NCBI GenBank assembly: GCA_017991615.1
Contig: JAGOQF010000002.1
Location: 50,750 to 114,749, forward strand
Reading direction: 5' to 3'
From: Candidatus Shapirobacteria bacterium
GTDB lineage: Bacteria > Patescibacteriota > Microgenomatia > UBA12405
Length of the DNA: 64,000 nucleotides
Part shown: piece after piece, positions 11,810 to 59,334 of the stretch
Numbering within the stretch: position 1 is the first letter of the stretch
How the letters are laid out: each line of letters begins with the position of its first letter
The notes under the pieces: model-generated
Told to the model about the DNA's origin: nothing
Database searches by the model: none
Seen by the model: only the letters and a program-made list of their open reading frames with translations
Made by a program: the position numbers and the translations under genes

Positions 11810-11829
11810 TATTAAGCTGAGTTTATGAA

Positions 11830-12618: not shown

Positions 12619-12620
12619 TT

Positions 12621-13520: not shown

Positions 13521-13524
13521 AATC

Positions 13525-25516: not shown

Positions 25517-25564
25517 AAGCTAGTTTACCAAAGACGTTTTAGCTAGAAACTGATAGAATTTAGT

Positions 25565-26509
25565 ATGGAACAACATCCAATTCCACAGCAAATTTCGTCC
25601 TACGAATTTAAGCTGGTGGGAGAAATGACATTAAAACAATTTTTAAAAGCAGCGGGTGGAATTTTGCTGGCAGTATTGATAAATTCGACTAAAATAGTGG
25701 CGTTTATAAAATGGCCATTGATGTTGTTTTTTGGAGGATTAGGATTATTGTTGGCATTTGTACCGTTTGAAGATAGACCACTAGAAACTTGGATTACAGC
25801 CTTTATTAAATCAATTTATTCACCGACGATATTTTTATACAAGAAAAAAAATGATAATAGCTGGTTAGAATTTGAAACCAAGCAGACAGGAACAGATGAG
25901 AATGAACCTGAAGAAGCAGTTGAAAGTAGGGATTTATTTGTGTCAGCGGTTAAGGATACAAATCTGGCTAAGGAAAGGTTTATCAGGGAAAAATTTCGTT
26001 TGGGGAGAAAAAATAAAAGATTGGCCGGAGAAACAGAAAAAGATACAGTTGAAGAAGCAACAGCAACGGTGTTAAAAACAACGGAGCCGACAGTGACGGA
26101 AAAAACTTTGGCACAGTCAACAAAAAAAGAGGAGGAAAGAACGACTGATTGGAGGGATGAAAAAGCTAACTTAAATTTAAAAACAGAAAAATTGAAAGCA
26201 ACAGGAAAAGCGGTTTTTGGGTCAATTCCAATGCCGGACAGACCAGATACTGCTAATGTGATTGTAGGGATGGCAACAACTTCTGAAGGAAAAATTATTG
26301 ACGGAGTAATTGTAGAAATCCAAGACAGCCATGGCAACCCAGCAAGAGTTATAAAGACTAACCTATTGGGACAATTTAAAATTTCAACTCCACTTAGTAA
26401 TGGTAGATATTTGATTATTGCTGAAAAAGATGGTTATGAATTTAACCGAGTTAATATTGATTTAACGGGTAAAATAGTCGATCCAATTAGGATTATTGCT
26501 AATAATTAG
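25565..26509 (+). CDS. PrgI-like T4SS-associated membrane protein with C-terminal carboxypeptidase-regulatory-like beta-sandwich
   Basis: 314 aa. N-terminal HPIPQQISSYEFKLVGEMTLKQF followed by two TM helices resembles PrgI-family proteins found 5' of VirB4 genes. The C-terminus GVIVEIQDSHGNPARVIKTNLLGQFKI is CarboxypepD_reg-like. Confidence 0.45.
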   Translation: MEQHPIPQQISSYEFKLVGEMTLKQFLKAAGGILLAVLINSTKIVAFIKWPLMLFFGGLGLLLAFVPFEDRPLETWITAFIKSIYSPTIFLYKKKNDNSWLEFETKQTGTDENEPEEAVESRDLFVSAVKDTNLAKERFIREKFRLGRKNKRLAGETEKDTVEEATATVLKTTEPTVTEKTLAQSTKKEEERTTDWRDEKANLNLKTEKLKATGKAVFGSIPMPDRPDTANVIVGMATTSEGKIIDGVIVEIQDSHGNPARVIKTNLLGQFKISTPLSNGRYLIIAEKDGYEFNRVNIDLTGKIVDPIRIIANN

Positions 26510-26525
26510 TTTATGATTAATAAAG

Positions 26526-27221
26526 ATGACCACTGATCCATTAAAAATAGCTATAAAAGGGAGTACTCAAGACCATTTACCGATTGAAGATATTGTTGAC
26601 GGAGTGGTGATAATGAAAGACGGATCATGCGCTTCGATTATGCAGATATCATCGGTAAATTTTGATCTATTGTCGGAAAAAGAACAATCGGCGTTGGTGG
26701 CGGCTTATGGGGGAATTTTAAACTCTTTAAATTTTCCGATTCAGATTGTAGTTAAGTCCAGTACTAAGGATGTGGGAGTTTACTTAAAAAGATTATTAGA
26801 AGCGGAAAAAAAACAGACTAATAAGTTACTTAAGGAAAGAATTAAAAACTATCGAAAATTTATTGATGAAACAGTAAAGAAAAATGATGTCTTATCAAAG
26901 ACTTTTTATATAGTAATTAAATTTTCTTCATTGGAATTGGGAATAAAAACAGCGGGAGTTCAAACTATTACCAATTTGTTTAACAAAAAGGTTACTAGTC
27001 TACCCTACCCTAAGGCAGAAATTTTGGAAAAAGCTAAAGCTAGTCTAGAACCAAAGAGAGATCATTTAGTAAGATTATTTTCTAGGTTGGGGTTAGAAAT
27101 AATCCCGCTGACAAATAGACAATCGATTGAGTTGTTCTATAAAATATATAATGAGGAAGTGGCGACCAATCAAAAAATGGAAACAATTAATTATCAAAAC
27201 CCAATAGTTACAACAAAATAA
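26526..27221 (+). CDS. Hypothetical protein (T4SS locus)
   Basis: 231 aa. Directly upstream of and translationally coupled (2-nt gap) to the VirB4-like gene. Confidence 0.35.
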   Translation: MTTDPLKIAIKGSTQDHLPIEDIVDGVVIMKDGSCASIMQISSVNFDLLSEKEQSALVAAYGGILNSLNFPIQIVVKSSTKDVGVYLKRLLEAEKKQTNKLLKERIKNYRKFIDETVKKNDVLSKTFYIVIKFSSLELGIKTAGVQTITNLFNKKVTSLPYPKAEILEKAKASLEPKRDHLVRLFSRLGLEIIPLTNRQSIELFYKIYNEEVATNQKMETINYQNPIVTTK

Positions 27222-27222
27222 T

Positions 27223-29511
27223 ATGTTATTTGGCAAAAAAAATAAAAAAACAACTGAACCGACAGTGGGACAAAAACTGACGGGAACAGATAATAGGCCA
27301 GAAACTGAAGGGAAAAAACCATTTAATGAAGGTTTGGTATCAACAAAGGATATTATTGCGCCAGCGTCGTTGGAGGTGGATTTTAATCATATCAGAATTG
27401 ACAATAAGTACTATCGGACATTATTTGTAGCCTCATATCCGCGATTTGTGGGAATAAACTGGTTGTCATCCCTGATTAATTTTGATGCCACTTTGAGTGT
27501 ATCAATGTATATTTATCCAACTGATGGTAAGGCGATTTTGGACGATTTGAGAAGGAAGATCACTGAGATGGAGGCTGAGATTAGTACTGATATCCAAAGA
27601 GGGCGGATAGTTAATCCAGCAACTCAAGCAAAATTGGAAGATGCGCTGAATTTGCAAGCAGATCTGGTTAAGGGAGAGGAAAGATTTTTTCAATTTGGAT
27701 TATATATTACTATTTCAGCAGACACTAAGGAAGAATTGGATAAGATTAATAAAAATCTAGAAGCAACGTTAGGATCACTTTTAATGGTAAGTAAAAGGGC
27801 AACTTTACAAATGGAAGATGGATTTATTACTGGACTACCAGTAGGTGACGACAGATTGAATATTACCAGAAATATGGATACGACTTCGCTGGCAACTACT
27901 TTTCCATTTGTATCTTCAGATCTATCGGATGATAAGGGAATAATGTATGGAATTAACATTCATAATAGTTCATTGGTAATTTTTGACCGATTCTCAATGC
28001 AGAACTATAACTCAGTAGTTTTTGCAACAGCTGGTGCTGGTAAGTCTTATATGATTAAATTGGAAGTGTTGAGATCACTAATGTTGGGGACGGAGATTAT
28101 TGTAATTGATCCAGAAAATGAATATCGGGATTTAGCAGAAGCAGTGGGAGGTCAATACATTGCTTTTGGTTATGGTGAAGGGTCAAAAATAAATCCATTT
28201 GATTTGTCACTGGTAGAAGAAGAGGGAGAAAATGCTCTAAACAGCAAGGTGTTGTCGATTCACCGATTGATGAAAATTATGTTAGGAAATATGGATCCAA
28301 TGGAAGAGTCAATTCTAGATCAGGCAATGATGGATGCTTATAAAATGAAAGGAATAACTCCGGATCCGACAACTCAAGATAGAGAACCACCATTAATTGA
28401 GGATGTTTATAAATCATTAATTGGGATGGAAGAAGAAAAAGCTAAAATGCTGGCGGCGAGAATGGAAAAATATATTAAAGGTTCATTTGCAGGCATTTTC
28501 AATCAAAAAACAACAATTAATTTAGTAAATCCGTTTGTAGTCTTTGGAATTAAGAATTTAGAGGATAGTTTACGACCGGTAGCTATGAACATAATTTTGG
28601 ACTATATTTGGACGGTAGTTAAAAAGAGTTTAAAGAAAAGAATTTTAGTGGTGGATGAGGCTTGGTATTTGATGCAATATGATGACTCAGCGGCATTTTT
28701 GAGAGGGATTGTAAAACGGGGTCGAAAATATTATCTGGGGGTGACGACAATTACCCAAGATGTAGATGATTTTTTGAAAACTGATTATGGTAAAGAAATT
28801 GTAACTAACAGCGCTATTCAAATTTTATTAAAACAACACGCGGCGGCGATTGATCAAATTGGAGAAGTATTTTATTTAAGTCAAGGAGAAAAACAATTAT
28901 TATTGACGGCCGACAAAGGTCAAGGAATATTTTTCGCCGGACAAAATCATGTGGCAATTCAAGTAATCTCTTCTGAAGAAGAACATAACTTAATTACCTC
29001 CAACCCAGAAGAAGTATTAAATAAGAGAAAAATAGCTACAGAAAAACCAGTAAGACCGGATTTAAAAGAAGAAAAGAAGAATATTACCTCGACCCCCCTA
29101 CCACCGAAACCTGAACCAGTGATGGAAAAAATGGTTGAATCAAAAAAAGAGGCAAATAATGAAATGGATGTAGAAACAATTTTACAAAGGAAAATTGAAA
29201 ATTTGGAACAAAAAGAAAATGAGTTATTGCAAGAAAAAATACCAAAGGGAAAATTTGAAGGAGAAATAAAAATTAATCAATCAAAACCAGAACCAGTTAG
29301 GTTTGTACCACCACTCAAGCCGGAAATAGTTAAACCTGAGGAAAAACAAAAACCAATATTTATTGCTGGAGAAGAAACAAAAGTACCACAACCACCACAA
29401 TTAATTAAAAAACCAACACCGGTTTTTGAAGACAAAAAAGATAAAAATCAATCAGAGGGAGAAAAAAGCGGATTAAATTATGATGATTTGTTTGATAATG
29501 GGATTGTATAA
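27223..29511 (+). CDS. VirB4/TraC/CagE-family conjugal-transfer ATPase with K/E/P-rich C-terminal extension
   Basis: 762 aa. Walker A FATAGAGKSYMIK, Walker B ILVVDEAWYL, and VirB4-like N-terminal region. Low-complexity tail from about residue 590. Confidence 0.75.
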   Translation: MLFGKKNKKTTEPTVGQKLTGTDNRPETEGKKPFNEGLVSTKDIIAPASLEVDFNHIRIDNKYYRTLFVASYPRFVGINWLSSLINFDATLSVSMYIYPTDGKAILDDLRRKITEMEAEISTDIQRGRIVNPATQAKLEDALNLQADLVKGEERFFQFGLYITISADTKEELDKINKNLEATLGSLLMVSKRATLQMEDGFITGLPVGDDRLNITRNMDTTSLATTFPFVSSDLSDDKGIMYGINIHNSSLVIFDRFSMQNYNSVVFATAGAGKSYMIKLEVLRSLMLGTEIIVIDPENEYRDLAEAVGGQYIAFGYGEGSKINPFDLSLVEEEGENALNSKVLSIHRLMKIMLGNMDPMEESILDQAMMDAYKMKGITPDPTTQDREPPLIEDVYKSLIGMEEEKAKMLAARMEKYIKGSFAGIFNQKTTINLVNPFVVFGIKNLEDSLRPVAMNIILDYIWTVVKKSLKKRILVVDEAWYLMQYDDSAAFLRGIVKRGRKYYLGVTTITQDVDDFLKTDYGKEIVTNSAIQILLKQHAAAIDQIGEVFYLSQGEKQLLLTADKGQGIFFAGQNHVAIQVISSEEEHNLITSNPEEVLNKRKIATEKPVRPDLKEEKKNITSTPLPPKPEPVMEKMVESKKEANNEMDVETILQRKIENLEQKENELLQEKIPKGKFEGEIKINQSKPEPVRFVPPLKPEIVKPEEKQKPIFIAGEETKVPQPPQLIKKPTPVFEDKKDKNQSEGEKSGLNYDDLFDNGIV

Positions 29512-29595
29512 TCCTTTGGGTAAAGATTGATATAATTTTGGGTAATAGTGCGATATTAAAAAAAATAAAAAAACAAGGTTAGAGACAAAAGCAAA

Positions 29596-31641
29596 ATGAA
29601 ATCAGATATTTTAAATCGGCAGACAGAAAAGAAAGAAGTTAATTATGTTAAAAAAACAATTGATCAATTAAGTGAAGGTATCAATGAACGGTTAGGAGGT
29701 AACGAAGAGTCAAAAGAAAAATTAAAAACGGAAATAATAAAAATAATTAATCAAGGTGATTTTAGAAATCAAGCTGAAGAAGTATTAGACCTAGCTGAGG
29801 CGTTACCTAAAAATGGGGATAATCAAACAGAGGCGGTAATAACAGCTAAAGAAATTAAGATATCTTTGGATAAATGGCAAGAAGAACATATTGATGAAGT
29901 TAGGAGTTACAGAAAGCAAATATTTGAAGAAAACTTTGAAAAGGAAACTAAAAAATTGAACCCAGAAATAAACAGTGAGGAAATAGAGGCGATTAAGACA
30001 AAGTCTAGTTTGATAGCCGAGATTTATTTTGGTAGTGGCGGGATAGAAAATCAAAAAGATAAGGTGGTTGAGGCAAATAAAGAAATGTCTGTAGGGAAAC
30101 TGAAAAATTCATGGATGGAAGTTCAAGCATTGGTAGGATTAATGCGAAAAAATTCATCAGAAATAGAAGAAACGGTGAAAAAAAATGATGAAGTAGACAC
30201 TAAATTAAATGGAATAAAAATACCTTATGAGACAATACCTCAAGCGAGAGCTTATGATGACGTAATTGATAATTTCAGACAGCCTGAGGTAAGACAAACA
30301 TTTGAATCAATTAGAAGTGGGATAGGAATGGTTAATAAAATTAGTCAGATAACTGGTGGTTGGATGGAAAAAGGAGTAGTAAAAATAGCTAATAATTTTA
30401 CCTCTAAAATCGGCAATCAAGCAGCGTCAGATTTTGTAAAAAATTCGGTGGGAATACTGGCAAAAGAAGGATTGAATGGTGGAATTAAAACGATTTTAAA
30501 AGGCTTAGCAAGTGGCGGAGTTAAAGCGGTTGCAAGCGGAGGAGTAGCTACTGGGGCAGGAATAGCGGCTGGAGTGGCTGGTGGGCCGCCAGGATGGATA
30601 ATAGCGGCGGTAACACTAGTTAAGAAAATAATCGGAAAAGTGGCTGATAAGCTAGGAGTTAATTTTGTAGGAAAAATGAAAGAGGCGATAGCAGTAACTG
30701 GCAATAAAGTGATTGATGGAACAATTCAAGGAGCTGAAGCATTGGTAACAATACCAACAATGGCAACAGGGACAACGACAGTAACAGTAGGAGGAGTGAT
30801 AGTAGCGGTGATAGCTGGTTTGATCATTTATCAAACACTACAGTCGAATATAGTGTCAAGTCTAGTACCTGAAGTGGAAATAGAAAAAACTGGAAGTGGT
30901 GGTGGAAGTAGTGGCGGTGGAGGTGGTAGTAGCAATATAGAGGTAGATATGAATCCAGTGTTAATACCTTCACAGACGGTTCAGTGTCGATCAGAAATGA
31001 CATCTTATCAAAATGAATTAATGACGAAAGTTAATAGTGCAGGTTATAGAACCAGAGCAGGAGTAGTAGCAGCGGCTTATTATCTGGCGGCTGAATTTCC
31101 ATACAAAGTTCCTTATTTCTTTAGTGGAGGTCATTCTTGGAGATCAGATTTTGATAGAGATGGTGGTTTTGTTTTGGAATCAGAAAATTCTTATATAACG
31201 GAATGGGGTTGTCCTAAAACTGAACCATCAAAAGGAGAAGAAAAACCTCCGACTTCTAATATACCTTTTGGATTAGATTGTTCTGGATTTGTAGACTGGG
31301 CTTATTTAACGGCTGGATTTAAAAATTTTGAACCTAATAGAGAATATCGCTATGGAGAGGACGGAAACTATTTAAGAATGTATTTTGAACCAAAAAACTG
31401 TGAATATATTAAAGAAAATATAAAACCAGGTGATGTTTTAAAAAAATGGGAAGGAGGAGCTCATACTGGGGTGATAGTTCAGATATCTGGTGACAAGATT
31501 AAATATGCTCAATCTTCGCCACGTGGGGTAAATATTGAATTTATTGATATTTGTACTGGACAAAAAATAGATGGGTCTAAGAATAGTTTTGAAGCGGTTG
31601 ATTTAATGGATGGATATTTTAATAAATTTGGTTCAAATTAA
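29596..31641 (+). CDS. Membrane-anchored protein with C-terminal NlpC/P60 (CHAP-like) peptidoglycan hydrolase domain (VirB1/PrgK functional analogue)
   Basis: 681 aa. Coiled-coil N-terminus, TM/Gly-rich region (GGGSSGGGGGSS), and C-terminal FGLDCSGFVDWAYL with a Cys nucleophile context and a downstream His. Confidence 0.55.
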   Translation: MKSDILNRQTEKKEVNYVKKTIDQLSEGINERLGGNEESKEKLKTEIIKIINQGDFRNQAEEVLDLAEALPKNGDNQTEAVITAKEIKISLDKWQEEHIDEVRSYRKQIFEENFEKETKKLNPEINSEEIEAIKTKSSLIAEIYFGSGGIENQKDKVVEANKEMSVGKLKNSWMEVQALVGLMRKNSSEIEETVKKNDEVDTKLNGIKIPYETIPQARAYDDVIDNFRQPEVRQTFESIRSGIGMVNKISQITGGWMEKGVVKIANNFTSKIGNQAASDFVKNSVGILAKEGLNGGIKTILKGLASGGVKAVASGGVATGAGIAAGVAGGPPGWIIAAVTLVKKIIGKVADKLGVNFVGKMKEAIAVTGNKVIDGTIQGAEALVTIPTMATGTTTVTVGGVIVAVIAGLIIYQTLQSNIVSSLVPEVEIEKTGSGGGSSGGGGGSSNIEVDMNPVLIPSQTVQCRSEMTSYQNELMTKVNSAGYRTRAGVVAAAYYLAAEFPYKVPYFFSGGHSWRSDFDRDGGFVLESENSYITEWGCPKTEPSKGEEKPPTSNIPFGLDCSGFVDWAYLTAGFKNFEPNREYRYGEDGNYLRMYFEPKNCEYIKENIKPGDVLKKWEGGAHTGVIVQISGDKIKYAQSSPRGVNIEFIDICTGQKIDGSKNSFEAVDLMDGYFNKFGSN

Positions 31642-31646
31642 ATAAT

Positions 31647-32144
31647 ATGTTTATTAAATTAATAAATTTAATTAAAAAATTTAAAGTAATAATTATTTTA
31701 GTATTAATAATATTTTTATTATTGATAATAAAGATAAATACTAAAGATGTTTATATTGAAAACAACAACTTAGATTTGATTAAAAATTCACTCACTCCAT
31801 CTGGAGTAAATAAAAAAGAAACTATAACTAGTCAGGATAAATTTAAAATAAAAGGATTAAATTTAGACGAGATAATGAATTTAAATTCAGGGGAGTATAG
31901 TAGTTTTATAAAAGGTTTAACAGAAAAAGAATTAGATATGTTGCCAGGAAAATATGATATTTCAGAATATATATCATTTGAAACTAACAATTTTATTATT
32001 AACGATTATGATTTAGACACGAAAGAGCTAAAAATTAAATCAAAAACAAATAATCAGGCATTTGATGAGGAAAATTTCGAATATTGGTATAAAAATTCAG
32101 TAGAAAATAATAGAAATGAAATTAAAGTAATATGGTCAAAATAA
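31647..32144 (+). CDS. Hypothetical membrane-anchored protein
   Basis: 165 aa. N-terminal TM helix. AT-rich. Confidence 0.35.
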   Translation: MFIKLINLIKKFKVIIILVLIIFLLLIIKINTKDVYIENNNLDLIKNSLTPSGVNKKETITSQDKFKIKGLNLDEIMNLNSGEYSSFIKGLTEKELDMLPGKYDISEYISFETNNFIINDYDLDTKELKIKSKTNNQAFDEENFEYWYKNSVENNRNEIKVIWSK

Positions 32145-32246: not shown

Positions 32247-33368
32247 TTAATCCTGGAGACGGACGGGCATAATTATATGAGTGAAAGAAGGGTCGGATTG
32301 GTCGTGAAAAAAGACAGGGGTAAGATTTTCATTAAGTTTGATCAAAATTTCTTGACTTTTACAGACATTAAGAAAGTCGCTTAAGAACTTATAGTTAAAA
32401 GCAACTTCGAGATTTTCACCTTCGGTTTTGGTTTCAATTTCAATTCGATTCTGACCGACTTGAGGAGCATTGGCAGTAAGTTCAACTGAATTATTTTTAA
32501 TATTCATTTTAACAACATTAGCGGATTCACGAGCAAAGACAGAAGCTAGTTTGACTGATTGAAAAAATTCGTCGCGATTGATAAAGACTTTGGTTTGATA
32601 TGATTCAGGAATAAGTTTTTTGTAGTCGGGAAACTCCCCTTCTATAAGTCGAGAAACTAGCTCTATATCGTCTAGAACAAACATTACTTGATGTTCGTCT
32701 TGAGTAAGACCAATCTTTATTTTTTGATTCGTTTTAGCGAGTTTAGTGACTTCAATTAAACTCCGAGCAGGAATTAAAAAAGTAACTGGTTTGTCAGTTT
32801 TTAAATTAAGAGAATTAACTAATTTAATTTCTTTGAAAGAAAGTCTAAAACCGTCGGTAGAAACCAAGGTAAGTAGATTTTGAGAAAAAGAACATAAAAT
32901 ACCGGTTAAAATCGGTCGAGTATCGTCAGTGGCGGCGGAAAAAGCCATTTGAGAAATAGCTTGACTTAAAATATCTAAATCAATTTCAAAAACAGTATCA
33001 GGATTGATTTGAGGAAATTCAGGAAAATCAGTGGCAGGAGAAGTAGTAAAATCGGATTCAATTTTTGCGGAAGAAACTGAGAGAAGATTATTTTCTTTGA
33101 GAGATAAATCAATTTTACCGGTAGGGAGATAAGAGATAAATTCAGTAATTTCTTTTGAAGGGATAGTAATACTCCCCTCTTGATCAATTTTAGCACCAAT
33201 CCAATAATTAATACTTAATTCTAAATTGGTGGCCGATAATTTGAGTCGACCTTGATCAGTGGAGATTAAAATATTTCCTAAAATAGGTAATTGATTTTTA
33301 GAAGAGACAAAACGGGAAACGTTGGTTAAGGCAAGGTTTAAGTTTTCCTGGAGAAGAGAAAGTTTCAT
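32247..33368 (-). CDS. dnaN: DNA polymerase III beta sliding clamp
   Basis: 373 aa. MKLSLLQENLNLAL...ILGNILI N-terminus, three-domain length, and position downstream of dnaA. Confidence 0.8.
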   Translation of the reverse strand: MKLSLLQENLNLALTNVSRFVSSKNQLPILGNILISTDQGRLKLSATNLELSINYWIGAKIDQEGSITIPSKEITEFISYLPTGKIDLSLKENNLLSVSSAKIESDFTTSPATDFPEFPQINPDTVFEIDLDILSQAISQMAFSAATDDTRPILTGILCSFSQNLLTLVSTDGFRLSFKEIKLVNSLNLKTDKPVTFLIPARSLIEVTKLAKTNQKIKIGLTQDEHQVMFVLDDIELVSRLIEGEFPDYKKLIPESYQTKVFINRDEFFQSVKLASVFARESANVVKMNIKNNSVELTANAPQVGQNRIEIETKTEGENLEVAFNYKFLSDFLNVCKSQEILIKLNENLTPVFFHDQSDPSFTHIIMPVRLQD

Positions 33369-33642
33369 TAATCTAATTATATAAAATTAATAATAAAATA
33401 GTAGTTGTAGTTAGTAGTAATGGTTAATAAGTGAATAAATTTAAAATTAAAGGTAATGATAGGTTAAAGATAAATTTAATGGATGTTGAAAGAGATAATT
33501 AGGTGAAAAATTGAGGGTTTTTTTGAAATTTTGGCTTATAAGTTGAATTGAGATTAGGGTTAGTTTCGGTGGGAAAGATAAAAAATAAATGTGGAAAAGT
33601 TGGTGGATAAGTGAGATAATTTTGTGGATAAATAAAATAAGT
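33369..33642. promoter_or_regulatory. oriC segment (dnaA-dnaN intergenic): AT-rich DUE-like tract plus DnaA boxes
   Basis: TGTGGATAA (perfect, 33623-33631), TGGTGGATAA and TGTGGAAAA variants. About 80% AT. Confidence 0.55.
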
Positions 33643-50545: not shown

Positions 50546-52603
50546 ATGACAGAACGACCATCAGCAATTGAATTTATCAAACAGGCTAGTCAAGAGGCTA
50601 GACAGAAGGAAAATAATCAGAGAGTGGGTAGGATTGCTGAATTGTTGGTGAATAATGCGGGAGTGTTGGGAAGAACAATTGAGAAAGAAAAATCAGATCA
50701 GGTATGTGAAGCGGTGTTGGGAGTGTTTGGGGCAGGGTATAAATCAGTAGAGGAGATGAGCAATACTTTGAAAAATCCGAGCGCAACCGACAGGCAGAAG
50801 GAAATGGCAAAAGAGAATTTGGAAGTTTTAGGAAAGGGGATTTTTGTAGCAATGAACAGAACTTTTGCCAACTTTTCGGAAGAAGCCACAGAGACGATTA
50901 CGTCTCAGATGACTGGAGAACAGATAGATGAGTTTGTATTACCGGATCAGTTAAAAGGGGCAGGAAAGTATGTGGTGGAGGCTGATGGAAAGGCGACAGA
51001 TGAGGAAAAAAAGAAAGCTAAAGAGCTGGTTAGAAGTGGAGGAGGTAGGCGGAGAGATGGTTACTCACCACCATTTGTAGGTAGCGAGGATGATCAAAAC
51101 AAAGAAGTAAGGTCGTGGCAAATATCGCCTGAATATGCGGCTGAGGCAATGAAAAACATGGATCAAATGTATTGGCAATCTTATACACCTCCAGAGTGGA
51201 TGAAAGGTTTAGATTCGGAAACTCAGGCGAGAATTGAATGCATGATTGATATAAATATGGGGGCTGTTATTTTGGGTAAAGCTGGTAAGGATTTGGAAAG
51301 GATAAAGTTTAATGATATGTATTTTAAGTTTAATAATGAGAGATTGACGAAGTTATTTAATCCTAATTTTAAGCTGGCTTTGAGTAAAATGTTGAATGAT
51401 TTATGTGAGCTTTATAAGGATCGGAATGGACATATGTGTCTTAGATATAAGGAGGGAAAAGATAAAGATGGGAAGCCGGGGATATCGGAAGAAGTGTTAA
51501 GTAAGTTAAGAAATATTGCGAAATATAAGGAAGATTTGGCTAAATTTTTGGCTGAACAGGATAAAGGGAAGAAAGAACCACCTTATATTTATAGGATGAA
51601 TGCTTATACGGCTTGGAATTTGTTTTATATGTTTGGAGACTCAAGTGTGGCTGATAGAAGAAGGTCGTTGCCAACTTATGGGGGGATAATAAGCGATGCT
51701 CTAAGAACTCTTAATCCAGAATATAAGGCTTTGGGGAAATGGAAAGTTTCGAAAAATGATGTTCCAGAATCTAGCTTGGAAGCGGCGGAGTGGTTTGGAG
51801 GACCATTAGGGACTTACGTGCAGACGGTAATGCAGTTGGAGAGAAGTTTGGGAAGGCCATTGGATGGAACCAAGACGTTGAGAGAAAAGATTATAAGTGG
51901 TGATTTGCCAATATTGAAAGCCAAGACTTTTTATGGTTTCTTTGACTTTGTGGCTGGTGATAAGAATTTGTTTGATAAGAATGGGGTTAATTTCATTAAT
52001 AAAGGAAGAAAAGAAACTTTGGCTTCTTTGTTGATGTATTATGCTTTTGATAAGGATGGAAATTTTATATCAGATGAGAATAAACGGGAGGATTTTAGTT
52101 TTGGTCATAACCAGGTTGATTTTTTGAATTTATATAGAGATCAGATGGAAGCGGCGGTTTTGACATTTAAGGCGATGACGGGTAAATTGGATACTAAAGA
52201 TATCGGCGGTTATGTGTCGGATATAAGAACTGCTTTTGGGATGGTTGATGGGATTAGTGTAAATGGAGATCATCTTTATAAATACACAAAGGATTGGGGA
52301 ACGTGGGGAAGTATGTTGTTGGGGTCTTTTGGGGTGGATATGCAGAAGTTATCAACCGATTTTATTTATTTAAGAGTGACGCGACCTGAAGCTTATAGTA
52401 TTAATGTTGGTGATTTTTTATATAAGGATTTGGGGTTGATGGGAAGTGATGTTGATTTGACAAAATTGATGAGATTTTTAGGAGTTGATATTAGAGATGG
52501 GGAAAGGTATGATGGTTTGGGGGTATCTACGAGAACTGGAAAGAAGCGAATAGAGATAGAGAGAAGGACAAATATTCTTTATAGAAGAATTAGGCAAAAA
52601 TAG
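50546..52603 (+). CDS. Large hypothetical protein (divergent partner of the PNP-domain gene)
   Basis: 685-aa ORF with no recognisable motif. Confidence 0.35.
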   Translation: MTERPSAIEFIKQASQEARQKENNQRVGRIAELLVNNAGVLGRTIEKEKSDQVCEAVLGVFGAGYKSVEEMSNTLKNPSATDRQKEMAKENLEVLGKGIFVAMNRTFANFSEEATETITSQMTGEQIDEFVLPDQLKGAGKYVVEADGKATDEEKKKAKELVRSGGGRRRDGYSPPFVGSEDDQNKEVRSWQISPEYAAEAMKNMDQMYWQSYTPPEWMKGLDSETQARIECMIDINMGAVILGKAGKDLERIKFNDMYFKFNNERLTKLFNPNFKLALSKMLNDLCELYKDRNGHMCLRYKEGKDKDGKPGISEEVLSKLRNIAKYKEDLAKFLAEQDKGKKEPPYIYRMNAYTAWNLFYMFGDSSVADRRRSLPTYGGIISDALRTLNPEYKALGKWKVSKNDVPESSLEAAEWFGGPLGTYVQTVMQLERSLGRPLDGTKTLREKIISGDLPILKAKTFYGFFDFVAGDKNLFDKNGVNFINKGRKETLASLLMYYAFDKDGNFISDENKREDFSFGHNQVDFLNLYRDQMEAAVLTFKAMTGKLDTKDIGGYVSDIRTAFGMVDGISVNGDHLYKYTKDWGTWGSMLLGSFGVDMQKLSTDFIYLRVTRPEAYSINVGDFLYKDLGLMGSDVDLTKLMRFLGVDIRDGERYDGLGVSTRTGKKRIEIERRTNILYRRIRQK

Positions 52604-52611: not shown

Positions 52612-54372
52612 TTATGGTGGTGATGGTCCGCCTCCGCGTTCTCTATCTGTTCTATCACCTGCATGTTTGCCTCCGAGCATTCTGTTGGTGATACTAATTG
52701 CTCTTCTATATAGATTACTACCACTACCGCCTCCAACCTTTTGGTTGGCATAATCAATACCAGCTCTGATACCGGATGAAGCAGTGCTTTTGGTAAATTT
52801 ACCAAGACCGGCATAACTTTCACCGATAGCAGAGCCGAAGGCGTCGGGTTTGAGTTTAAAGATGGCTTCAGGGACAAGTTTGGGAAGGTTGGAAATCATG
52901 GCTAGTCCGGCGAGACCAATGCCGGCGGCAACAACACCCATAGGGTAACCAGCGATATCACCGGTAATGGTGATGAGATCAATCTGGCTGGGAATCCAAA
53001 GAGTTCCACCGCGGACAATTTCGGTAAGATAATTGAGAGCGACAATAAACAGACTAACTATAGGAAAGACAGAGATATTGGCAATAAGATCAATAATCCA
53101 AGAGGAAAAGCCTTGTTTGGCGGTTGGGAAAGCGCCGAGACCGATTTGGATAGGGCTGATAATGATTTTGAAAATAACAACAATATAACTTTTGAGAAGA
53201 CCAAAATAGAGTCTAATCATCCAGATAACCATAAGAACAGCCATGATGAGAGGAAATGAAAGCCAGCCGGCAATTCCGCCGACAACATCGCCAACTACAG
53301 CGCCAACTGTACCAACAACTCGACTGCCCAGTTGACCCAAAGCCGCTCCACCAATACCACCAAGAATGGTCCCGAGGAAGATTTGACCGGCAACTTCTCC
53401 AAGCATGAAGCCATAAATTGCAGGAATGGCTTGATTACTTAGTTCATAAATGGTGCCGAAGCTCATTCGGGATAGATTCTCCAGATTAGTGGGATGATGA
53501 TTAAAAAGACCAGCAATAGCTTCAATTCCTGCCCAGATTAGATCACCAATCCAAGTAAGCGGATTATTATTACTAATATCTATTGTGGTGGGAAATAAAT
53601 TACTGTTAAAATCGGCGTTACCCCTAGCGTTAAAGAAGACGGAGATACCGAGGGAAAGGACTAGTTTACTTAAATCGATGATTAGTCCGGCGATAGCGTA
53701 AGAAAAAGTAACTAAAATTAGAGTGGTAATGACTTTGGGGATGGTATTTTGAATGTTAACAACAGTTTGGGGATTAACTTTGACTCGAAGCATAATCATA
53801 ATACCAATAGTGACGAAAAATATAGAAATTAAAGCATAAACAAAATTGCGAATAGTACGCCAGAGAGGGAGGATGGGTTGAAGTCCTTGGAAACCGGTAT
53901 TTTGAGCGTAAGCAGGTTTACCAAGAAATTCGTTTTTGACTTGAGCTAGATATTCAACACCAGAAACCGGTTGGTAGTAAAGGCTGCTGATCATATTATT
54001 GGTAGTGCCAATAACTCCACCAGGGATGTAACCAGTGAAATTTATAGAACCGTCTTCTTGAAAAGGGATACCTCCGGTAAGCGAACCAAGAATACTAACT
54101 ATATTACTGGCAAGTGAAGAATCAAGCCAAGCTTCTTGGTTGTTACCTTTTTTGATGGCATCTTGTTTTTGTTTGATTAAATTTTGAGGGGTGTTAGTTT
54201 GATTTTGGTTGGTGGGGGTGTTGGTAATTTCGCTGGCGGTGATGGTTTTGATGGAAAGAAAGAGACTAAAACCAGAGATGATTATTAGGAAAGCGGTGAA
54301 AAAGAATTTTTTGGAAGGGATGAGGCGGGTGGAGCGGAGGTTGAGATGATGGAGTAGTTGTTTGAAGGTCAT
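52612..54372 (-). CDS. Polytopic membrane protein, VirB6/TrbL-like candidate of T4SS-like locus
   Basis: 586 aa. Signal/TM, Q/N/T-rich spacer, at least 8 TM helices with Gly-rich loops, and a Gly/Arg C-tail. Operon context with pilin-like genes. Confidence 0.4.
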   Translation of the reverse strand: MTFKQLLHHLNLRSTRLIPSKKFFFTAFLIIISGFSLFLSIKTITASEITNTPTNQNQTNTPQNLIKQKQDAIKKGNNQEAWLDSSLASNIVSILGSLTGGIPFQEDGSINFTGYIPGGVIGTTNNMISSLYYQPVSGVEYLAQVKNEFLGKPAYAQNTGFQGLQPILPLWRTIRNFVYALISIFFVTIGIMIMLRVKVNPQTVVNIQNTIPKVITTLILVTFSYAIAGLIIDLSKLVLSLGISVFFNARGNADFNSNLFPTTIDISNNNPLTWIGDLIWAGIEAIAGLFNHHPTNLENLSRMSFGTIYELSNQAIPAIYGFMLGEVAGQIFLGTILGGIGGAALGQLGSRVVGTVGAVVGDVVGGIAGWLSFPLIMAVLMVIWMIRLYFGLLKSYIVVIFKIIISPIQIGLGAFPTAKQGFSSWIIDLIANISVFPIVSLFIVALNYLTEIVRGGTLWIPSQIDLITITGDIAGYPMGVVAAGIGLAGLAMISNLPKLVPEAIFKLKPDAFGSAIGESYAGLGKFTKSTASSGIRAGIDYANQKVGGGSGSNLYRRAISITNRMLGGKHAGDRTDRERGGGPSPP

Positions 54373-54872: not shown

Positions 54873-57107
54873 TTAAGGATTGTAATCCCAGTGTTCGGGT
54901 TCAAGTTGATGATTGTAAAAACCATACTGGTGAGCATTGGCAGTGAGCCATTTGTAAGCGGAGGAACTGGAAGTGAGTTTGCCGTTTTTGTCGGCAAAAT
55001 CGATGGCGCGGCCGGTGTGGTGGGGCGAAGTGCCAGGATAATTGATTTGACTGATAGTTTGATATTGGTCGCCGTTGTTTTGGGCGAGGTTTTCTTGCCA
55101 AAGGTCGGTTTGTTGGTTTAGACTTCGGTAGCAACTAAAAAAGGAGAGTTGGTTGTCGGGATTGTCGGTATTGAAGGCGGAAATCATTTGGTTAAGGCTG
55201 GAAAAGATGCGTTCGTCGAGTTGACAATTACCCTGGTAGGTTTTGAGATATTTCCCGCCGTCAATTTGGGCGAGATCGTAAACTTGATTAATTCGACCAG
55301 GTGAAGAGTTATTGGAGAATGAAATTAAACCTTGAGAATTGGTATTGGTAGAAATATTGGTAATACTGGGAAGGGTATAACCGATACCTTCGAAGCAAAT
55401 ACCATTGATGGCCCCTCCATTAGCGTCGAAGGCGTAGGAAATTTTTTCGTATTTAAGGCCATCAAATTTAGGATTGTAAGAACCAGGACCGCAAAAAGCA
55501 CTGCGAGCGGTAGTGTGGAGACGTTGGCGGCTGTTTTGGTCGACGACATATTCACCACGAGTAAGTTCGACGGCGGCGCCTTGATTGGTAATAACCTCTT
55601 TGCCATTGATAATTTTAGGTTGGTTGAGAGAGACTTGATCACAACGAAAAGCTTGGTCTTTGTTGTTATTCCAAAGGAAACCTTTATCTCCGTTTTGGAT
55701 AGCGGTATGGCGATGGGTGAGGGTAAGAGCTTTTTGAGCTTCGATATGCCAATTGCGGGGAACTTCGGCAACACCTAGAAGGTAGGTATAGAGATCTGGA
55801 ACAGTGACAACAGGATAACAAATACCTTCGAGGCGATAGGGCGGGGATGAGGGATTGTCTGGGTCAGTGACGGGGATTTTGACATATTTATCACAGGGGG
55901 TTTTACCGTCTTCGTTGACACCGCCACTGCCTTGGTAAAGATCAACTTTATCGTAGTTTTGGTCACCAACAAGATTGGGGCAAGTAATATCGCTGTCACC
56001 ACCGTAGTCTTCGATAATAACGACTTTTATGGGTCCTTTGTCATCGTCACCTTGTCGTTCGGTGTCGATACCACCACCGTGATAAATATTGATAATTTCC
56101 TTGTAATTGTAGCCGCTGAGAGCTAAACCATGGGTACCACGTTGACTAAGACCAGGTCCATTTTTGACAGTGTATTCTTCATCACATTGAATTTGGTCGG
56201 TGTTGATAAGATTGCCTAGAGCGCCACATTTAGAGTTATTCCAGCCATTGGGAGTAAGGTGACAGGCGAAACTTTGACGAAGATTTTCACGATTAAAATC
56301 AGCATTGTTGTTACAGGCAATTTGGTCGTGAACTGGTTCGGAAAGTAGACCTAAAAGCATATTTTGTTCTTGTTTGTCACTATCTTCGGCAACTTTTTTG
56401 GCTTGTTGAGGATTGTCATTGCTGGGAGGGGCATTTTCACCTTGGAAATTGCGAGGCATAACATTTCTAATAGTGTCATTGAGTTGGAGACTGGTAATAG
56501 GGGCGGCATCGGCTTCGTTCATGAAGAGACCTTGAGGGACGTCTTGAATATTGTTGTAAGCGTTGAGATAACAGGAAAGAGGATGTTTGATTTCGAAACG
56601 AAATTGATTCATAAGATTGGGGTCATATTCAAGCGGTTGGTCGGGATTACCTTGCTGATAGAGAATTTTTTGGTTTTGTTGGTACATGACATAGGCAATA
56701 TCAGAGATTTTCATGTCGGGACAGATATCTTGATCACTTTTGATGGTTTCATTTTTGTATTTGTGAGGTTTAGTCAGTACCTCATAAAACCAAACGCCTT
56801 TGCGGTATCTTTTGACTGATTCAGGAATGGCGCGGGAGGCAATATCTTTGTCGTCTCGAGTATAGTCGTTGGTGAGATGACGAGTATCCTTGGTGGAAGC
56901 TTGGTAATCCTCGGAAACATATTGAATACCAAAGATGAGGTAGTTAAAAAATCTGGTGATAGCTTCCCAGATAGTTTGAAAAAATCCGGGAGATGATTGT
57001 TCTTGGGGGGGGTTGCCGGATGGAGGATCTGATTGAGCAGTGACAGTTGTGGGGGTGAGCCAAAACAAGGAGAAAAAACTGATAATGAGAACAATTTTTT
57101 TGATCAT
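54873..57107 (-). CDS. Secreted Cys-rich peptidoglycan-remodelling protein: SpoIID/LytB-like region + C-terminal peptidase M15 (VanY-like)
   Basis: 744 aa with a signal peptide. GLSQRGTHGLALSGYNYKEIINIYHGG resembles the SpoIID GMSQxGA motif. The C-terminal SPHHTGRAIDF resembles the M15 SxHxxGxAxD motif. Confidence 0.5.
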   Translation of the reverse strand: MIKKIVLIISFFSLFWLTPTTVTAQSDPPSGNPPQEQSSPGFFQTIWEAITRFFNYLIFGIQYVSEDYQASTKDTRHLTNDYTRDDKDIASRAIPESVKRYRKGVWFYEVLTKPHKYKNETIKSDQDICPDMKISDIAYVMYQQNQKILYQQGNPDQPLEYDPNLMNQFRFEIKHPLSCYLNAYNNIQDVPQGLFMNEADAAPITSLQLNDTIRNVMPRNFQGENAPPSNDNPQQAKKVAEDSDKQEQNMLLGLLSEPVHDQIACNNNADFNRENLRQSFACHLTPNGWNNSKCGALGNLINTDQIQCDEEYTVKNGPGLSQRGTHGLALSGYNYKEIINIYHGGGIDTERQGDDDKGPIKVVIIEDYGGDSDITCPNLVGDQNYDKVDLYQGSGGVNEDGKTPCDKYVKIPVTDPDNPSSPPYRLEGICYPVVTVPDLYTYLLGVAEVPRNWHIEAQKALTLTHRHTAIQNGDKGFLWNNNKDQAFRCDQVSLNQPKIINGKEVITNQGAAVELTRGEYVVDQNSRQRLHTTARSAFCGPGSYNPKFDGLKYEKISYAFDANGGAINGICFEGIGYTLPSITNISTNTNSQGLISFSNNSSPGRINQVYDLAQIDGGKYLKTYQGNCQLDERIFSSLNQMISAFNTDNPDNQLSFFSCYRSLNQQTDLWQENLAQNNGDQYQTISQINYPGTSPHHTGRAIDFADKNGKLTSSSSAYKWLTANAHQYGFYNHQLEPEHWDYNP

Positions 57108-57464
57108 TTAATTAGAGTCGATTTTGAATATGGTGACATCGATACCGGTAAATTCTTTGATGAAAAGAAGGATTAACCAGGAAACAATGATGCCAATAAT
57201 ACCAATGACAGCGTAGGTGAGGGTGGTGGAAGCGGCAGCAACTTTTTTGGGGTCGCCGCCAGAGGTGAGATATTTGAAACCGCCGACGATGAGCATGGCT
57301 AAGGAGACGAAGCCGGCAAGGCTGACAATGACAGTAATGATGTTTTGAAAAAGACATTCAAGGCCTTTGATGGTGGCGACACCGTCGGAAACACAATTGC
57401 CAGACCAGGCTTTAGTTTGGGCTAGTGCGGGGTGAGGTAAAAAAAATTTGATGATTGAATTCAT
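57108..57464 (-). CDS. VirB2/TrbC-like mini-pilin paralogue 1
   Basis: 118 aa. Signal-like N-terminus, two hydrophobic helices separated by a conserved GGFKYLTSGGDPKKV loop. Paralogous to the five downstream genes. Confidence 0.5.
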   Translation of the reverse strand: MNSIIKFFLPHPALAQTKAWSGNCVSDGVATIKGLECLFQNIITVIVSLAGFVSLAMLIVGGFKYLTSGGDPKKVAAASTTLTYAVIGIIGIIVSWLILLFIKEFTGIDVTIFKIDSN

Positions 57465-57530: not shown

Positions 57531-57911
57531 TTATTTGAAAGTGGGAATAGTTAGACCCTTGAGAATGTCAATACCAAAGATGGTACCGATAAGTTTCATA
57601 ATGGCCCAAGCGGCAAAGACGATAGCCAAACCAATGAGAGCGTTGGTAATTTGAGCGCGGGCTTCGCCGACCTTTTTTTCATCACCGCCAGAAGTAACCC
57701 ATTTAAGACCGCCCCAAACTAAAATGAAGAAGAAAACTAAAGCGACTACAATTAGAACCAAACTGACAGCACCAGAAACAATACCGCCAACAGTAAGGTC
57801 ACTAAGAGGTTTAAAATCTTGAGTTTTTGACTCTATTTTAAGAGTCTCTTGGGCGTAAATAGGGGCAGCAATAGCTGCGTATTGGATTTGTTGTTTGAGT
57901 TTGTTGAGCAT
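57531..57911 (-). CDS. VirB2/TrbC-like mini-pilin paralogue 2 (candidate major pilin)
   Basis: 126 aa. LVWGGLKWVTSGGDEKKVGEA...ALIGLAIVFAAWAI. Followed by a strong terminator. Confidence 0.5.
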   Translation of the reverse strand: MLNKLKQQIQYAAIAAPIYAQETLKIESKTQDFKPLSDLTVGGIVSGAVSLVLIVVALVFFFILVWGGLKWVTSGGDEKKVGEARAQITNALIGLAIVFAAWAIMKLIGTIFGIDILKGLTIPTFK

Positions 57912-57961: not shown

Positions 57962-58315
57962 TTAAAGAGAAGGCCAAACTAATTGAAGATTTTGGAGATT
58001 AGGAATACCAAAGACAACACCAACAAATTTAAGAATGGCGAAAATGGCAAAGACTAGAATTAGACCGATAAAAGCATAAAGAATTGAACTTTGAGCTTGC
58101 TTCCATTTGTCGGGATTGCCTTGAGAAGCAATCATATGATAAGCATACATAATAAAGTGCCAGATGAAGTAGAGAACAGCGACGATGAAAAAAATAGAAA
58201 TAATGCTTTGAATAGCATTATTGACATAATTAGAGGGATTAGAAACAATGCTGTTAGAGTCGGGGAGAACAGGATTATTAATTTGAGCAAAAATAGGTGG
58301 GATAATTTTAATCAT
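57962..58315 (-). CDS. VirB2/TrbC-like mini-pilin paralogue 3
   Basis: 117 aa. MIASQGNPDKWKQA...AFIGLILVFAIFAI. Confidence 0.45.
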   Translation of the reverse strand: MIKIIPPIFAQINNPVLPDSNSIVSNPSNYVNNAIQSIISIFFIVAVLYFIWHFIMYAYHMIASQGNPDKWKQAQSSILYAFIGLILVFAIFAILKFVGVVFGIPNLQNLQLVWPSL

Positions 58316-58316
58316 A

Positions 58317-58676
58317 TTAAGGTTGATTTTTAGGCATAATATTTTGGATACTAAGCGGATCTTTGATACCTAGAAGACTGGCAATGAAAGCGCCAACACC
58401 AAGAGCGACAACGATAATGGTCAGGCCAAGAATACCGTTGGTAAGACGACTACGGGCGGCTTCAATTTTATCTTTGTTTCCTTGGGCGGAAATAAATGAA
58501 TAACCAGCAAAAATAACCTGAATAATGAAGTAAATAACAGCAACGATAGTCAGAATTCCAATGATTTGACTGAGAAAACCTTCAAGAGGTTTGGCAGGAT
58601 TACTTAAATCTGGTTTGAGACCAGGACCTTCAAGTTTGTAAGTAGTATCAGCAATCAAGGGTTTAGTTAGGACCAT
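58317..58676 (-). CDS. VirB2/TrbC-like mini-pilin paralogue 4 (start revised to internal Met)
   Basis: The listed ORF 58317..58751 overlaps the upstream paralogue by 89 nt. Starting at Met26 (MVLTKPL...) gives a 14-nt overlap and a paralogue-like length. SAQGNKDKIEAA loop motif. Confidence 0.4.
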   Translation of the reverse strand: MVLTKPLIADTTYKLEGPGLKPDLSNPAKPLEGFLSQIIGILTIVAVIYFIIQVIFAGYSFISAQGNKDKIEAARSRLTNGILGLTIIVVALGVGAFIASLLGIKDPLSIQNIMPKNQP

Positions 58677-58983
58677 AAATGATGGGTTCAATAATGTTAA
58701 TGTTAAGAATTGAGCCAACGACACTGGTAAGAATGAAAGCTCCGGCAACAATAATTAGACCGATAAGACTTTGGGTGATTTTATTCAAGGCGGCTTCAGT
58801 TTTTTTGGGATCACCACTACTGGAAAGATAGCCGTAACCAGCTATAATTAATTGGGCCACAAAGAAAAGACCGGCAATAACACCGGCCAGTTTGAAAATA
58901 TTGGATAAGAGAAGAAATAATCCAGAACCGCCTTGACTGTTGTAATTGGTTGGATTGGAGATGCTACCAAAGATTGCGAGCAT
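58663..58983 (-). CDS. VirB2/TrbC-like mini-pilin paralogue 5
   Basis: 106 aa. IIAGYGYLSSSGDPKKTEAA...LIGLIIVAGAFIL. Confidence 0.45.
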   Translation of the reverse strand: MLAIFGSISNPTNYNSQGGSGLFLLLSNIFKLAGVIAGLFFVAQLIIAGYGYLSSSGDPKKTEAALNKITQSLIGLIIVAGAFILTSVVGSILNINIIEPIIYGPN

Positions 58984-58989: not shown

Positions 58990-59334
58990 TTATAAACCAG
59001 AATCAAGAATTTTGACGCCAGTAACCAAACTAATAATTTGAATGATAAAATAAGCAGAAAAAACGACGGCAAAACCGATAAGAGCACTACTGATGGCCTG
59101 TTGAGCTTGGGCGGTTTTTTTAGAATCAGCGGAACCGGCGTTGATAATCATGCTGATGCCACCAAAAATAAGCAAACAAAGAAAAATAATTCCGGCTAAG
59201 GTAAGAGAGTTTTTGAGAAGAGAGTTGATTAGGGGGCTAGCGGTGTTATATTTAGGACCGACGGCGGTGCCACTGTTGTCAAGAAGATTGTTGCCGATAT
59301 TGACTTGAGCTAAAAGAGATGATGTCATTGGCAA
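58990..59334 (-). CDS. VirB2/TrbC-like mini-pilin paralogue 6
   Basis: 114 aa. IFGGISMIINAGSADSKKTAQA...ALIGFAVVFSAYFI. Confidence 0.45.
   Translation of the reverse strand: MPMTSSLLAQVNIGNNLLDNSGTAVGPKYNTASPLINSLLKNSLTLAGIIFLCLLIFGGISMIINAGSADSKKTAQAQQAISSALIGFAVVFSAYFIIQIISLVTGVKILDSGL

Follow-up and report, generated by a model that had tools for sequence, protein, structure and literature searches.

We analysed a stretch of 64,000 nt from Candidatus Shapirobacteria bacterium (contig JAGOQF010000002.1, positions 50,750 to 114,749; hereafter the window), in which five closely spaced plus-strand open reading frames (ORFs), ORF1 to ORF5, fill positions 25565-32144. Their products include a VirB4-family ATPase of the kind found in type IV secretion systems (T4SSs), and a second locus some 20 kb away encodes VirB2-like pilins. 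The first locus comprises the following features, with gene coordinates as given in the ORF list of the window:

25550..25558, + strand: promoter-like extended -10 element (TGaTAGAAT), 6 nt 5′ of the ORF1 ATG
25565..26509, + strand: ORF1, 314 aa, PrgI/VirB3-like two-helix protein (Pfam PrgI, CarboxypepD_reg)
26526..27221, + strand: ORF2, 231 aa, TrsD-like, a detached VirB4 N-terminal piece (NCBIfam TrsD, PF26593)
27223..29511, + strand: ORF3, 762 aa, VirB4-family ATPase of MPF-FATA / CD1110 type (conju_CD1110, P-loop_TraG)
29528..29536, + strand: second promoter-like extended -10 element (TGaTATAAT), within the 84 nt that separate virB4 from ORF4
29596..31641, + strand: ORF4, 681 aa, predicted membrane-anchored NlpC/P60 wall peptidase, VirB1 analogue (NlpC/P60 match)
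31647..32144, + strand: ORF5, 165 aa, small single-pass membrane protein (predicted helix; no family match)

Components of the virB4 operon

By its sequence, ORF3 is unambiguously a VirB4, and its best family model makes it one of the monoderm (MPF-FATA, CD1110-like) type. It scored 385 bits against the NCBIfam model conju_CD1110 ('VirB4-like conjugal transfer ATPase, CD1110 family'; cut-off 325) and 98 bits against Pfam P-loop_TraG, matched PDB entry 4AG5, the VirB4 C-terminal domain from Thermoanaerobacter, with E 8e-46, and carries both a Walker A (ATAGAGKS) and a Walker B motif (ILVVDE, at residue 474). Weaker matches were to HerA/DUF87 (34 bits), the SXT_TraD coupling protein (E 0.007) and CedB; grouping with FtsK/HerA had been named as the alternative for this protein, and the HerA and coupling-protein models fell far below the VirB4 models. 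A scan covering one genome per species found VirB4 matches of 45-91% identity at loci L001-L019, all in patescibacterial metagenome-assembled genomes (MAGs) labelled Woesebacteria, Shapirobacteria or Parcubacteria, or mislabelled by default; the sole other match, L020 in a Mycoplasmataceae MAG, was weak (23% identity).

From about residue 600, VirB4 continues as a disordered, K/E/P-rich tail of ~160 residues (residues ~600-762; 29020-29511) whose length varies among L001-L017. Within this tail, islands of the form KKPIFI..EE...PQPPQL.KKP.PVFE and a C-terminal peptide, (M/L)(D/N)YD(D/K)LFGxGIV, are kept in every L001-L017 sequence that reaches the C-terminus, except L015/L016; the peptide is missing from the VirB4 proteins of L015, L016 and L019. 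The C-terminal peptide looks like a docking peptide. Its 'DDLF' was also considered as a beta-clamp-binding motif and rejected, since its first two positions depart from the QL[SD]LF consensus and no other evidence favoured the assignment.

ORF2 matched NCBIfam TrsD (E 6e-9) and carries the precomputed Pfam annotation PF26593 ('TraC-like'). It aligned with N-terminal positions of three VirB4 models (CD1110 2-125, TIGR00929 8-186 and VirB4_plasma 103-255), and ORF3 covers the complementary positions of the same models (185-734, 238-733 and 293-893, respectively). The top six PDB fold matches of an AlphaFold model of ORF2 (predicted local distance difference test, pLDDT, 70.5) were all TrwK/VirB4 chains of plasmid R388, with probabilities of up to 0.99 and a template-modelling (TM) score of only 0.40. 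In a profile search of 1.84 billion representative proteins, ORF2 had 2,710 relatives, and the match always lay at their N-terminus. The metagenomic protein P0310 (787 aa) joins the two: its residues 6-199 correspond to ORF2 with 48% identity, and residues ~212-771 align with ORF3 residues 45-602 with 60% identity, as a collinear fusion in the order of the operon. Given the complementary coverage of the models, the TrwK/VirB4 fold matches and the P0310 fusion, we conclude that ORF2 is TrsD, a detached N-terminal piece of VirB4. We rejected the idea that ORF2 and ORF3 are paralogues: their relation is complementary, that of a split gene, and neither direct BLASTP nor hhalign of shallow locus-derived alignments (Neff ~2.3) detected significant similarity between them. 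A phmmer search of PDB sequences gave no match for ORF2. The ORF2-ORF3 arrangement is that of TrsD/TrsE of plasmid pGO1, and TrsD is the commonest T4SS component in Patescibacteria (PMC12102498). Contigs of numerous ENA, JGI and Logan samples encode the exact ORF2 protein, each time in the context seen here. In proteins of other lineages (P0323, P0345, P0333, P0306 and P0277) the TrsD domain is followed by 300-500 low-complexity residues rich in Q/P/S/T/N, and a conserved C-terminal motif of the LPPI(A/P)EI type closes these tails.

ORF1 matched Pfam PrgI with E 6e-5 over almost the entire profile (positions 1-87 of 91), but its 23.9 bits fall short of the cut-off of 27. Two hydrophobic helices, predicted at residues 30-48 and 50-68, form a hairpin that is followed by a charged linker and a C-terminal beta-sandwich-like domain; residues 233-300, within the last ~70, matched CarboxypepD_reg (E 1.6e-5, under the Pfam cut-off). 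In L015 (41.3 bits) and L019 (30 bits) the orthologous proteins score above the PrgI cut-off, and the L015 protein retains the CarboxypepD_reg-like tail. No match to ORF1 was found by phmmer among PDB sequences. We conclude that ORF1 is a PrgI/VirB3-type protein with two predicted helices, encoded next to virB4.

In ORF4, a predicted hydrophobic helix (approximately residues 389-414) precedes a GSGGGSSGGGGGSS Gly/Ser linker and a C-terminal NlpC/P60 domain. The domain match has E 0.004 in the window protein and lies above the cut-off in the L001 and L013 orthologues. The orthologue alignment shows conservation of the catalytic Cys (GLDCSGF) and His (AHTGV), with Gln in the window and His in relatives at the third catalytic position. 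We conclude that ORF4 is a predicted papain-like NlpC/P60 wall peptidase situated behind a membrane helix. Its N-terminal two thirds are conserved and comprise a coiled region, a Gly/Ala-rich stretch and the membrane helix; the C-terminal enzyme domain is exchanged between genomes: NlpC/P60 in the window, L001, L008 and L013, Peptidase_M23 in L010 and L012, VanY in L014, and Peptidase_C39_2 in L030. A constant scaffold with interchangeable wall-cutting heads fits a VirB1-type role. The phmmer matches to ORF4 among PDB sequences were artefacts of the Gly/Ser linker only and were discarded.

ORF5 evolves fast and has one predicted helix, at residues 12-30. It had no family match in Pfam or NCBIfam, and its homologues (27-31% identity) are confined to L001, L002 and L008. 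Its GC content is 0.20, compared with 0.32-0.36 for the remaining operon genes, and its third-position skew is lower, at 0.31.

A sequence-only reading of the window had described ORF1 as a PrgI-like protein with a CarboxypepD_reg-like tail, ORF3 as a VirB4-family ATPase with Walker A/B motifs and a K/E/P-rich tail, and ORF4 as a membrane-anchored NlpC/P60 hydrolase with a Gly/Ser linker. All three descriptions agree with the matches, motifs and orthologues described above. The same reading called ORF2 a conserved hypothetical; the TrsD and PF26593 matches make it TrsD-like instead.

Intergenic spacing from ORF1 to ORF5 is 16, 1, 84 and 5 nt in turn, the ORF2 stop lying 1 nt ahead of the ORF3 start (TAAtATG). 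Tight translational coupling is plausible at two junctions, ORF2-ORF3 and ORF4-ORF5. The genes had been taken for a single translationally coupled operon, but the 84-nt gap before ORF4 contains a conserved TGnTATAAT. This element, directly 3′ of the virB4 stop, is kept in nine related loci; upstream of ORF1, TGnTAGAAT lies at a constant distance from the ATG in 15/15 related loci, with the sequence farther upstream diverging. Because there are two conserved extended -10 elements, prgI-trsD-virB4 and ORF4-ORF5 are probably two transcription units driven from these predicted promoters, rather than one coupled operon. Since the first element is only 6 nt from the ATG, the predicted promoter implies a leaderless or near-leaderless ORF1 mRNA. 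No Shine-Dalgarno sequence is visible before any of the five operon genes. Both elements emerged solely from the comparison of related loci; a generic promoter/terminator scan gave matches at chance level only. A perfect 19-nt A-rich repeat, AAAAAAAATAAAAAAACAA, occurs at 27235-27253, in the first codons of virB4, and at 29558-29576, just 5′ of ORF4, and may be low-complexity chance.

The distal pilin locus

The genes of the second locus (52.6-59.3 kb), preceded by a neighbouring plus-strand gene that may or may not belong to it, are as follows:

50546..52603, + strand: soluble 685-aa protein without Pfam, NCBIfam or PDB match; gene convergent with that of the channel candidate
52612..54372, - strand: polytopic membrane protein, 586 aa, channel (VirB6) candidate, ~8 hydrophobic helices
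54414..54869, - strand: single-pass membrane protein, 151 aa, helix at residues 10-28 and an S/T/P/Q/N-rich linker
54873..57107, - strand: secreted cell-wall enzyme, 744 aa (VanY 66 bits; SpoIID E 0.004; NCBIfam LdcB and SpoIID)
57108..57464, - strand: pilin 1, VirB2-like, 118 aa, two helices (PF18895 T4SS_pilin 38.4 bits; L029 orthologue 60%)
57531..57911, - strand: pilin 2, VirB2-like, 126 aa (PF18895 39.1 bits; L029 orthologue 72%)
57962..58315, - strand: pilin 3, VirB2-like, 117 aa (PF18895 33.6 bits; L029 orthologue 65%)
58317..58751, - strand: pilin 4, VirB2-like, at most 144 aa (PF18895 23.1 bits, sub-cut-off; TrbC E 4e-4; L029 orthologue 55%)
58663..58983, - strand: pilin 5, VirB2-like, 106 aa (PF18895 42.8 bits; L029 orthologue 54%)
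58990..59334, - strand: pilin 6, VirB2-like, 114 aa (PF18895 30.9 bits; L029 orthologue 59%)

Five of the six tandem pilins score above the PF18895 family cut-off, and most of the six have a short leader ending P-[IV]-[YF]-A-Q. Given that the pilin 4 and pilin 5 ORFs as listed overlap by 89 nt, and that pilin 4 is called as 119 aa in L027, the true pilin 4 start is probably downstream of the listed TTG. All six pilins have one-to-one orthologues, in the same order, at 6020-8360 of L029 (54-72% identity); the paralogues are 25-47% identical to each other. One-to-one orthology in a kept order means that the array is an old, fixed set and not a fast-varying one, and suggests that the pilins would form a heteromeric filament rather than an antigenic-variation array.

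The 586-aa protein matched no Pfam or NCBIfam model and belongs to a family of 476 'hypothetical' proteins. Its exact sequence was not found on look-up, and separate searches gave a 99%-identical match and a 586-aa gene call at this position; the failed exact match is as likely to reflect differences of one or two residues as a different start. Fold matches of its model (pLDDT 74.6) to TrwI/VirB6 chains had non-significant E values of 1.4-2.6. Recognisable VirB6 is scarce in Microgenomatia (PMC12102498), and the 586-aa family is a reasonable candidate for the missing VirB6. Of the earlier designation of this region as a pilin/VirB6-like locus, the pilins stand, as six PF18895 genes, but the VirB6 label is not established, the fold matches being non-significant.

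The size and topology of ORF5 and of the 151-aa protein would suit a VirB8-like bitopic protein; neither gave a sequence match in Pfam or NCBIfam, and a membrane helix is the sole part that they share. In L029 the position orthologous to that of the 744-aa enzyme is occupied by a SpoIID protein. A 50% identical orthologue of the 685-aa protein also lies in L029, in the same convergent position beside the channel-candidate gene; the protein is possibly an accessory component or a substrate. On the plus strand, 59470-62667 is occupied by genes for a 7TM_transglut membrane protein and two ATP-grasp proteins (ATPgrasp_ST and RimK), which diverge from the pilin array, and the same trio is found at this position in the relative (L029 2750-5859).

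Probably one system in two loci, and its likely role

We consider it highly probable that the operon is the membrane-motor and wall-breaching half of a chromosomal, pilus-bearing T4SS of the kind typical of Patescibacteria, here in Microgenomatia (the relevant MAGs are labelled Woesebacteria or Shapirobacteria). The sequence-only reading had assembled a Gram-positive-type parts list from the two loci, of which the ATPase, the wall hydrolase and the pilins were found; the channel assignment, however, is not established. In such a machine, PrgI would tether a hexameric TrsD-VirB4 motor to the membrane, ORF4 and the VanY/SpoIID enzyme would open the peptidoglycan locally, the polytopic 586-aa protein would form the membrane channel, and VirB4 would drive extraction of the pilins and their polymerisation into a surface filament. 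These steps are modelled on established T4SS architecture, from work on R388 and pCF10/pIP501 and from PMC12857230.

A Pfam scan of all ORFs of at least 100 aa in the 64 kb found no coupling protein, relaxase or integrase family, as had been noted for VirD4 and relaxase; the scope of these negatives is the window only. An oriT, likewise noted as absent, is recognisable only together with a relaxase. For epibiotic growth, Southlakia epibionticum requires a T4SS cluster that has pilin subunits but no recognisable coupling or relaxase proteins (Wang et al. 2023; PMC10633639). Because the window has no coupling protein or relaxase, and because the homologous system is essential in S. epibionticum, the system most likely serves to make contact with a host bacterium, or to pass proteins or other cargo into or out of it, and not to conjugate. 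A more specific idea, which we consider doubtful, is that in a machine lacking a type IV coupling protein (T4CP) the VirB4 motor of this lineage would itself recruit substrates or partners, with the VirB4 tail, and the TrsD tails of other lineages, as docking arms and the pilins as a heteromeric filament.

Several points weigh against a host-contact T4SS. The PrgI and NlpC/P60 scores of the window's own proteins are under the Pfam cut-offs, and P0310 is possibly a sequencing or gene-calling fusion. The VirB6 assignment is one of topology and neighbourhood: the fold search gave E >0.4 and the PDB profile search no match. No VirB8-like component was identified in the sequence-family scans. The genome might have a coupling-protein gene outside the window; Patescibacteria have 5,713 VirD4 homologues, mostly distant from virB4 (PMC12102498). 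Lastly, in Microgenomatia, this organism included, the system is known from sequence alone; the class has no cultivated member so far.

The apparatus might alternatively be a DNA importer like ComB of Helicobacter or Ced of archaea, that is, a reversed T4SS that brings in host DNA as a source of nucleotides. Patescibacteria are unable to make nucleotides, by published accounts (PMC12857230), and in the class ABY1 T4SS genes adjoin competence and recombination genes (PMC12102498); the window, as in ComB, has no T4CP or relaxase, and ORF3 weakly matches the DNA-import ATPase CedB (53 bits). The CD1110-type VirB4 score of ORF3 is nevertheless far above that for CedB, and Pfam scans detected no DNA-binding or ComEC-like gene in either locus. 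Moreover, competence in S. epibionticum needs ComEC and type IV pili, and deletion of comEC ends transformation but leaves cells viable, whereas the T4SS is essential (PMC12857230). We therefore regard DNA uptake as improbable, and return to the host-contact T4SS as the preferred reading.

Some 20 kb and ~15 unrelated genes separate the two loci, which are on opposite strands, the polytopic 586-aa protein has no detectable VirB6 similarity, and pilins are normally absent from Gram-positive T4SSs (PMC12102498), all of which would favour a virB4 operon working alone, as a pilus-less Gram-positive-type translocon, and a distal locus that belongs to another envelope structure. In L015, however, three pilin genes, a homologue of the 586-aa protein (directly 5′ of prgI), prgI, trsD and virB4 form one contiguous stretch. 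The virB4 operons of L013 and L014 contain, 3′ of ORF4, homologues of the 151-aa protein and of the VanY domain. On a 258-kb contig from a relative, both loci lie ~24 kb apart, with dnaA between them and orientations as here. Furthermore, PF18895 pilins are relatives of VirB2/TrbC, whose assembly is known only with a VirB4 motor, and the pilin array of S. epibionticum lies within its essential T4SS cluster (PMC12857230, PMC10633639). We conclude that the virB4 operon and the distal locus co-occur as one system; two separate machines would have very little chance of being the right explanation.

The operon also has a stable chromosomal setting. In L001-L014, L017 and L030 a glycosyltransferase (GT4) and a 5′-3′ exonuclease gene on the minus strand are followed by prgI, trsD, virB4, ORF4 and sometimes ORF5, and next, in the same genomes, by dnaN and dnaA (minus strand) and then rnpA and yidC. 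VirB4 identity among the loci that share these housekeeping neighbours is 63-91%. At third codon positions, ORF1-ORF4 have a GC skew (0.46-0.56) equal to that of the core genes nearby. The operon flanks contain no att-like direct repeats, only short A/T-rich chance repeats, and no tRNA gene adjoins the operon.

An integrated conjugative element (ICE), or the recently decayed remains of such an element, with relaxase, coupling protein and integrase lost or located beyond the window, is scarcely credible. In its favour, the genes for VirB4, TrsD, PrgI and the hydrolase share both homology and order with the tra/trs cores of conjugative plasmids and ICEs of monoderms (PMC12102498), and a small restriction-modification-like island at 11.2-14.6 kb marks the region as capable of taking up foreign DNA. 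Identical housekeeping neighbours on both sides in ~15 genomes, the core-like skew, the lack of integrase, relaxase, T4CP, flanking repeats and adjacent tRNA in the 64 kb, and the rarity of relaxases (103/3,035 Patescibacteria genomes; PMC12102498) all argue otherwise. The system had been proposed to be chromosomal rather than an integrative conjugative element, with integrase, relaxase, coupling protein and direct repeats named as the signs to look for; none was found in the window or flanks, and the conserved neighbours and skew bear the proposal out.

The restriction-modification-like island (11192-14598; GC 0.26-0.29) encodes a T5orf172 protein, an N6_N4 methylase, a 299-aa protein and a Dam-type methylase. 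The third-position skew of its last two genes (0.09-0.14) is well below that of their neighbours, which suggests recent acquisition.

Relation to known systems and to the replication origin

The kind of system described here is already known, and the locus fits the published description point for point. VirB4 occurs in 2,417/3,035 Patescibacteria genomes as one clade within MPF-FATA, with TrsD and PrgI near virB4, pilin arrays of 2-11 genes that are especially frequent in Microgenomatia and Saccharimonadia, and hardly any relaxases; dnaA, dnaN and rnpA lie near virB4 in Microgenomatia and Paceibacteria (Quinonero-Coronel et al. 2025; PMC12102498). The S. epibionticum cluster has six VirB2-like pilins, according to a 2025 review (PMC12857230). 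What the window shares with this Patescibacteria clade (S. epibionticum SEML1_0006-0019 and the PMC12102498 survey) is PrgI/VirB3, TrsD, a VirB4 of probable MPF-FATA ancestry, peptidoglycan hydrolases, six divergent PF18895 pilins, a polytopic membrane protein, the lack of a nearby relaxase, and a chromosomal position beside dnaA/dnaN/rnpA. It differs in that the S. epibionticum genes form one cluster, whereas here there are two loci ~20 kb apart on either side of dnaA. The PrgI beta-sandwich tail and the long VirB4 tail with its conserved C-terminal peptide are features of the locus described here, and its channel candidate has no detectable VirB6 similarity, in line with the scarcity of VirB6 in Microgenomatia (PMC12102498). 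A low-scoring PrgI adjacent to virB4 may explain why few VirB3 genes are reported beside virB4 in that class (PMC12102498).

Among MPF-FATA plasmids, pGO1/pSK41 trs and pIP501 tra have the same order of a VirB3-like gene (TrsC/TraC), TrsD/TraD, VirB4 (TrsE/TraE), a gap and a membrane-anchored wall hydrolase (TrsG/TraG), and in pGO1/pSK41 TrsD is separate and related to the VirB4 N-terminus, as here; this comparison draws on PMC12102498, the NCBIfam match and background on the plasmids. The trs/tra systems differ in having a relaxase, a coupling protein and oriT, in lacking pilins, in being plasmid-borne and moving DNA, and in having an SLT+CHAP rather than an NlpC/P60 hydrolase. Elements of the Tn916, CTn2 and ICEBs1 type share the CD1110-family VirB4 (above the curated cut-off here) and an NlpC/P60 hydrolase (Orf14/CwlT), but their VirB4 is a single polypeptide, and they integrate, excise, carry relaxases and have no pilins. 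With Agrobacterium VirB and R388 Trw the common ground is a VirB3-VirB4 inner-membrane motor and two-helix VirB2 pilins whose short leader ends in Ala-Gln; R388 TrwK/VirB4 is also the best fold match of the ORF2 model. Unlike these Gram-negative systems, the window has no outer-membrane core (VirB7/9/10) and no VirB5, VirB11 or VirD4, and its wall enzymes are of monoderm type.

The novelty first attached to the locus was overrated, since the missing relaxase, the pilin arrays and the dnaA/dnaN position are already published (PMC10633639, PMC12102498). Among T4SSs, only that of Patescibacteria is reported to be essential for growth of the cell that carries it; the locus is a clean Microgenomatia example of this system and adds nothing categorical. 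Its additions are increments, namely the demonstration of a split VirB4, the swapping of hydrolase domains, the ordered orthologous pilins, the VirB4 tail peptide and a VirB6 candidate family, and these are leads for structural or interaction studies rather than discoveries.

Between the two loci are dnaN (32247-33368) and dnaA (33643-34983). The 64 kb contain just two perfect DnaA boxes, at 33623 and 35048, and boxes with at most one mismatch to TTATCCACA cluster at the same places, five at 33590-33699, in or beside the AT-rich dnaA-dnaN spacer, and two at 35048-35079, 5′ of dnaA. The two loci had been placed across the replication origin from each other; the genes and DnaA boxes support an origin at the dnaA position, but the GC skew gives no confirming sign change there, being positive throughout the window (plus strand G 15,468, C 7,580). 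Chromosome-wide G/C strand disparity occurs in other Microgenomatia, for which unidirectional replication has been suggested (PMC7143001). A link between the T4SS and this disparity was considered and dropped, as L015, L016 and L019 have the T4SS without the disparity.

Third-position skew, taken on the plus strand, is positive whatever the orientation of the gene. It steps from ~0.49-0.54 (6.5-35 kb) to 0.77-0.82 (35-64 kb) at ~35.0-35.3 kb, which is exactly the dnaA-rpmH intergenic region. We found no description of such a step at dnaA in the literature. Ten kb farther left (L025) the skew is low and mostly still positive, and in syntenic relatives it is likewise positive on both sides of dnaA.

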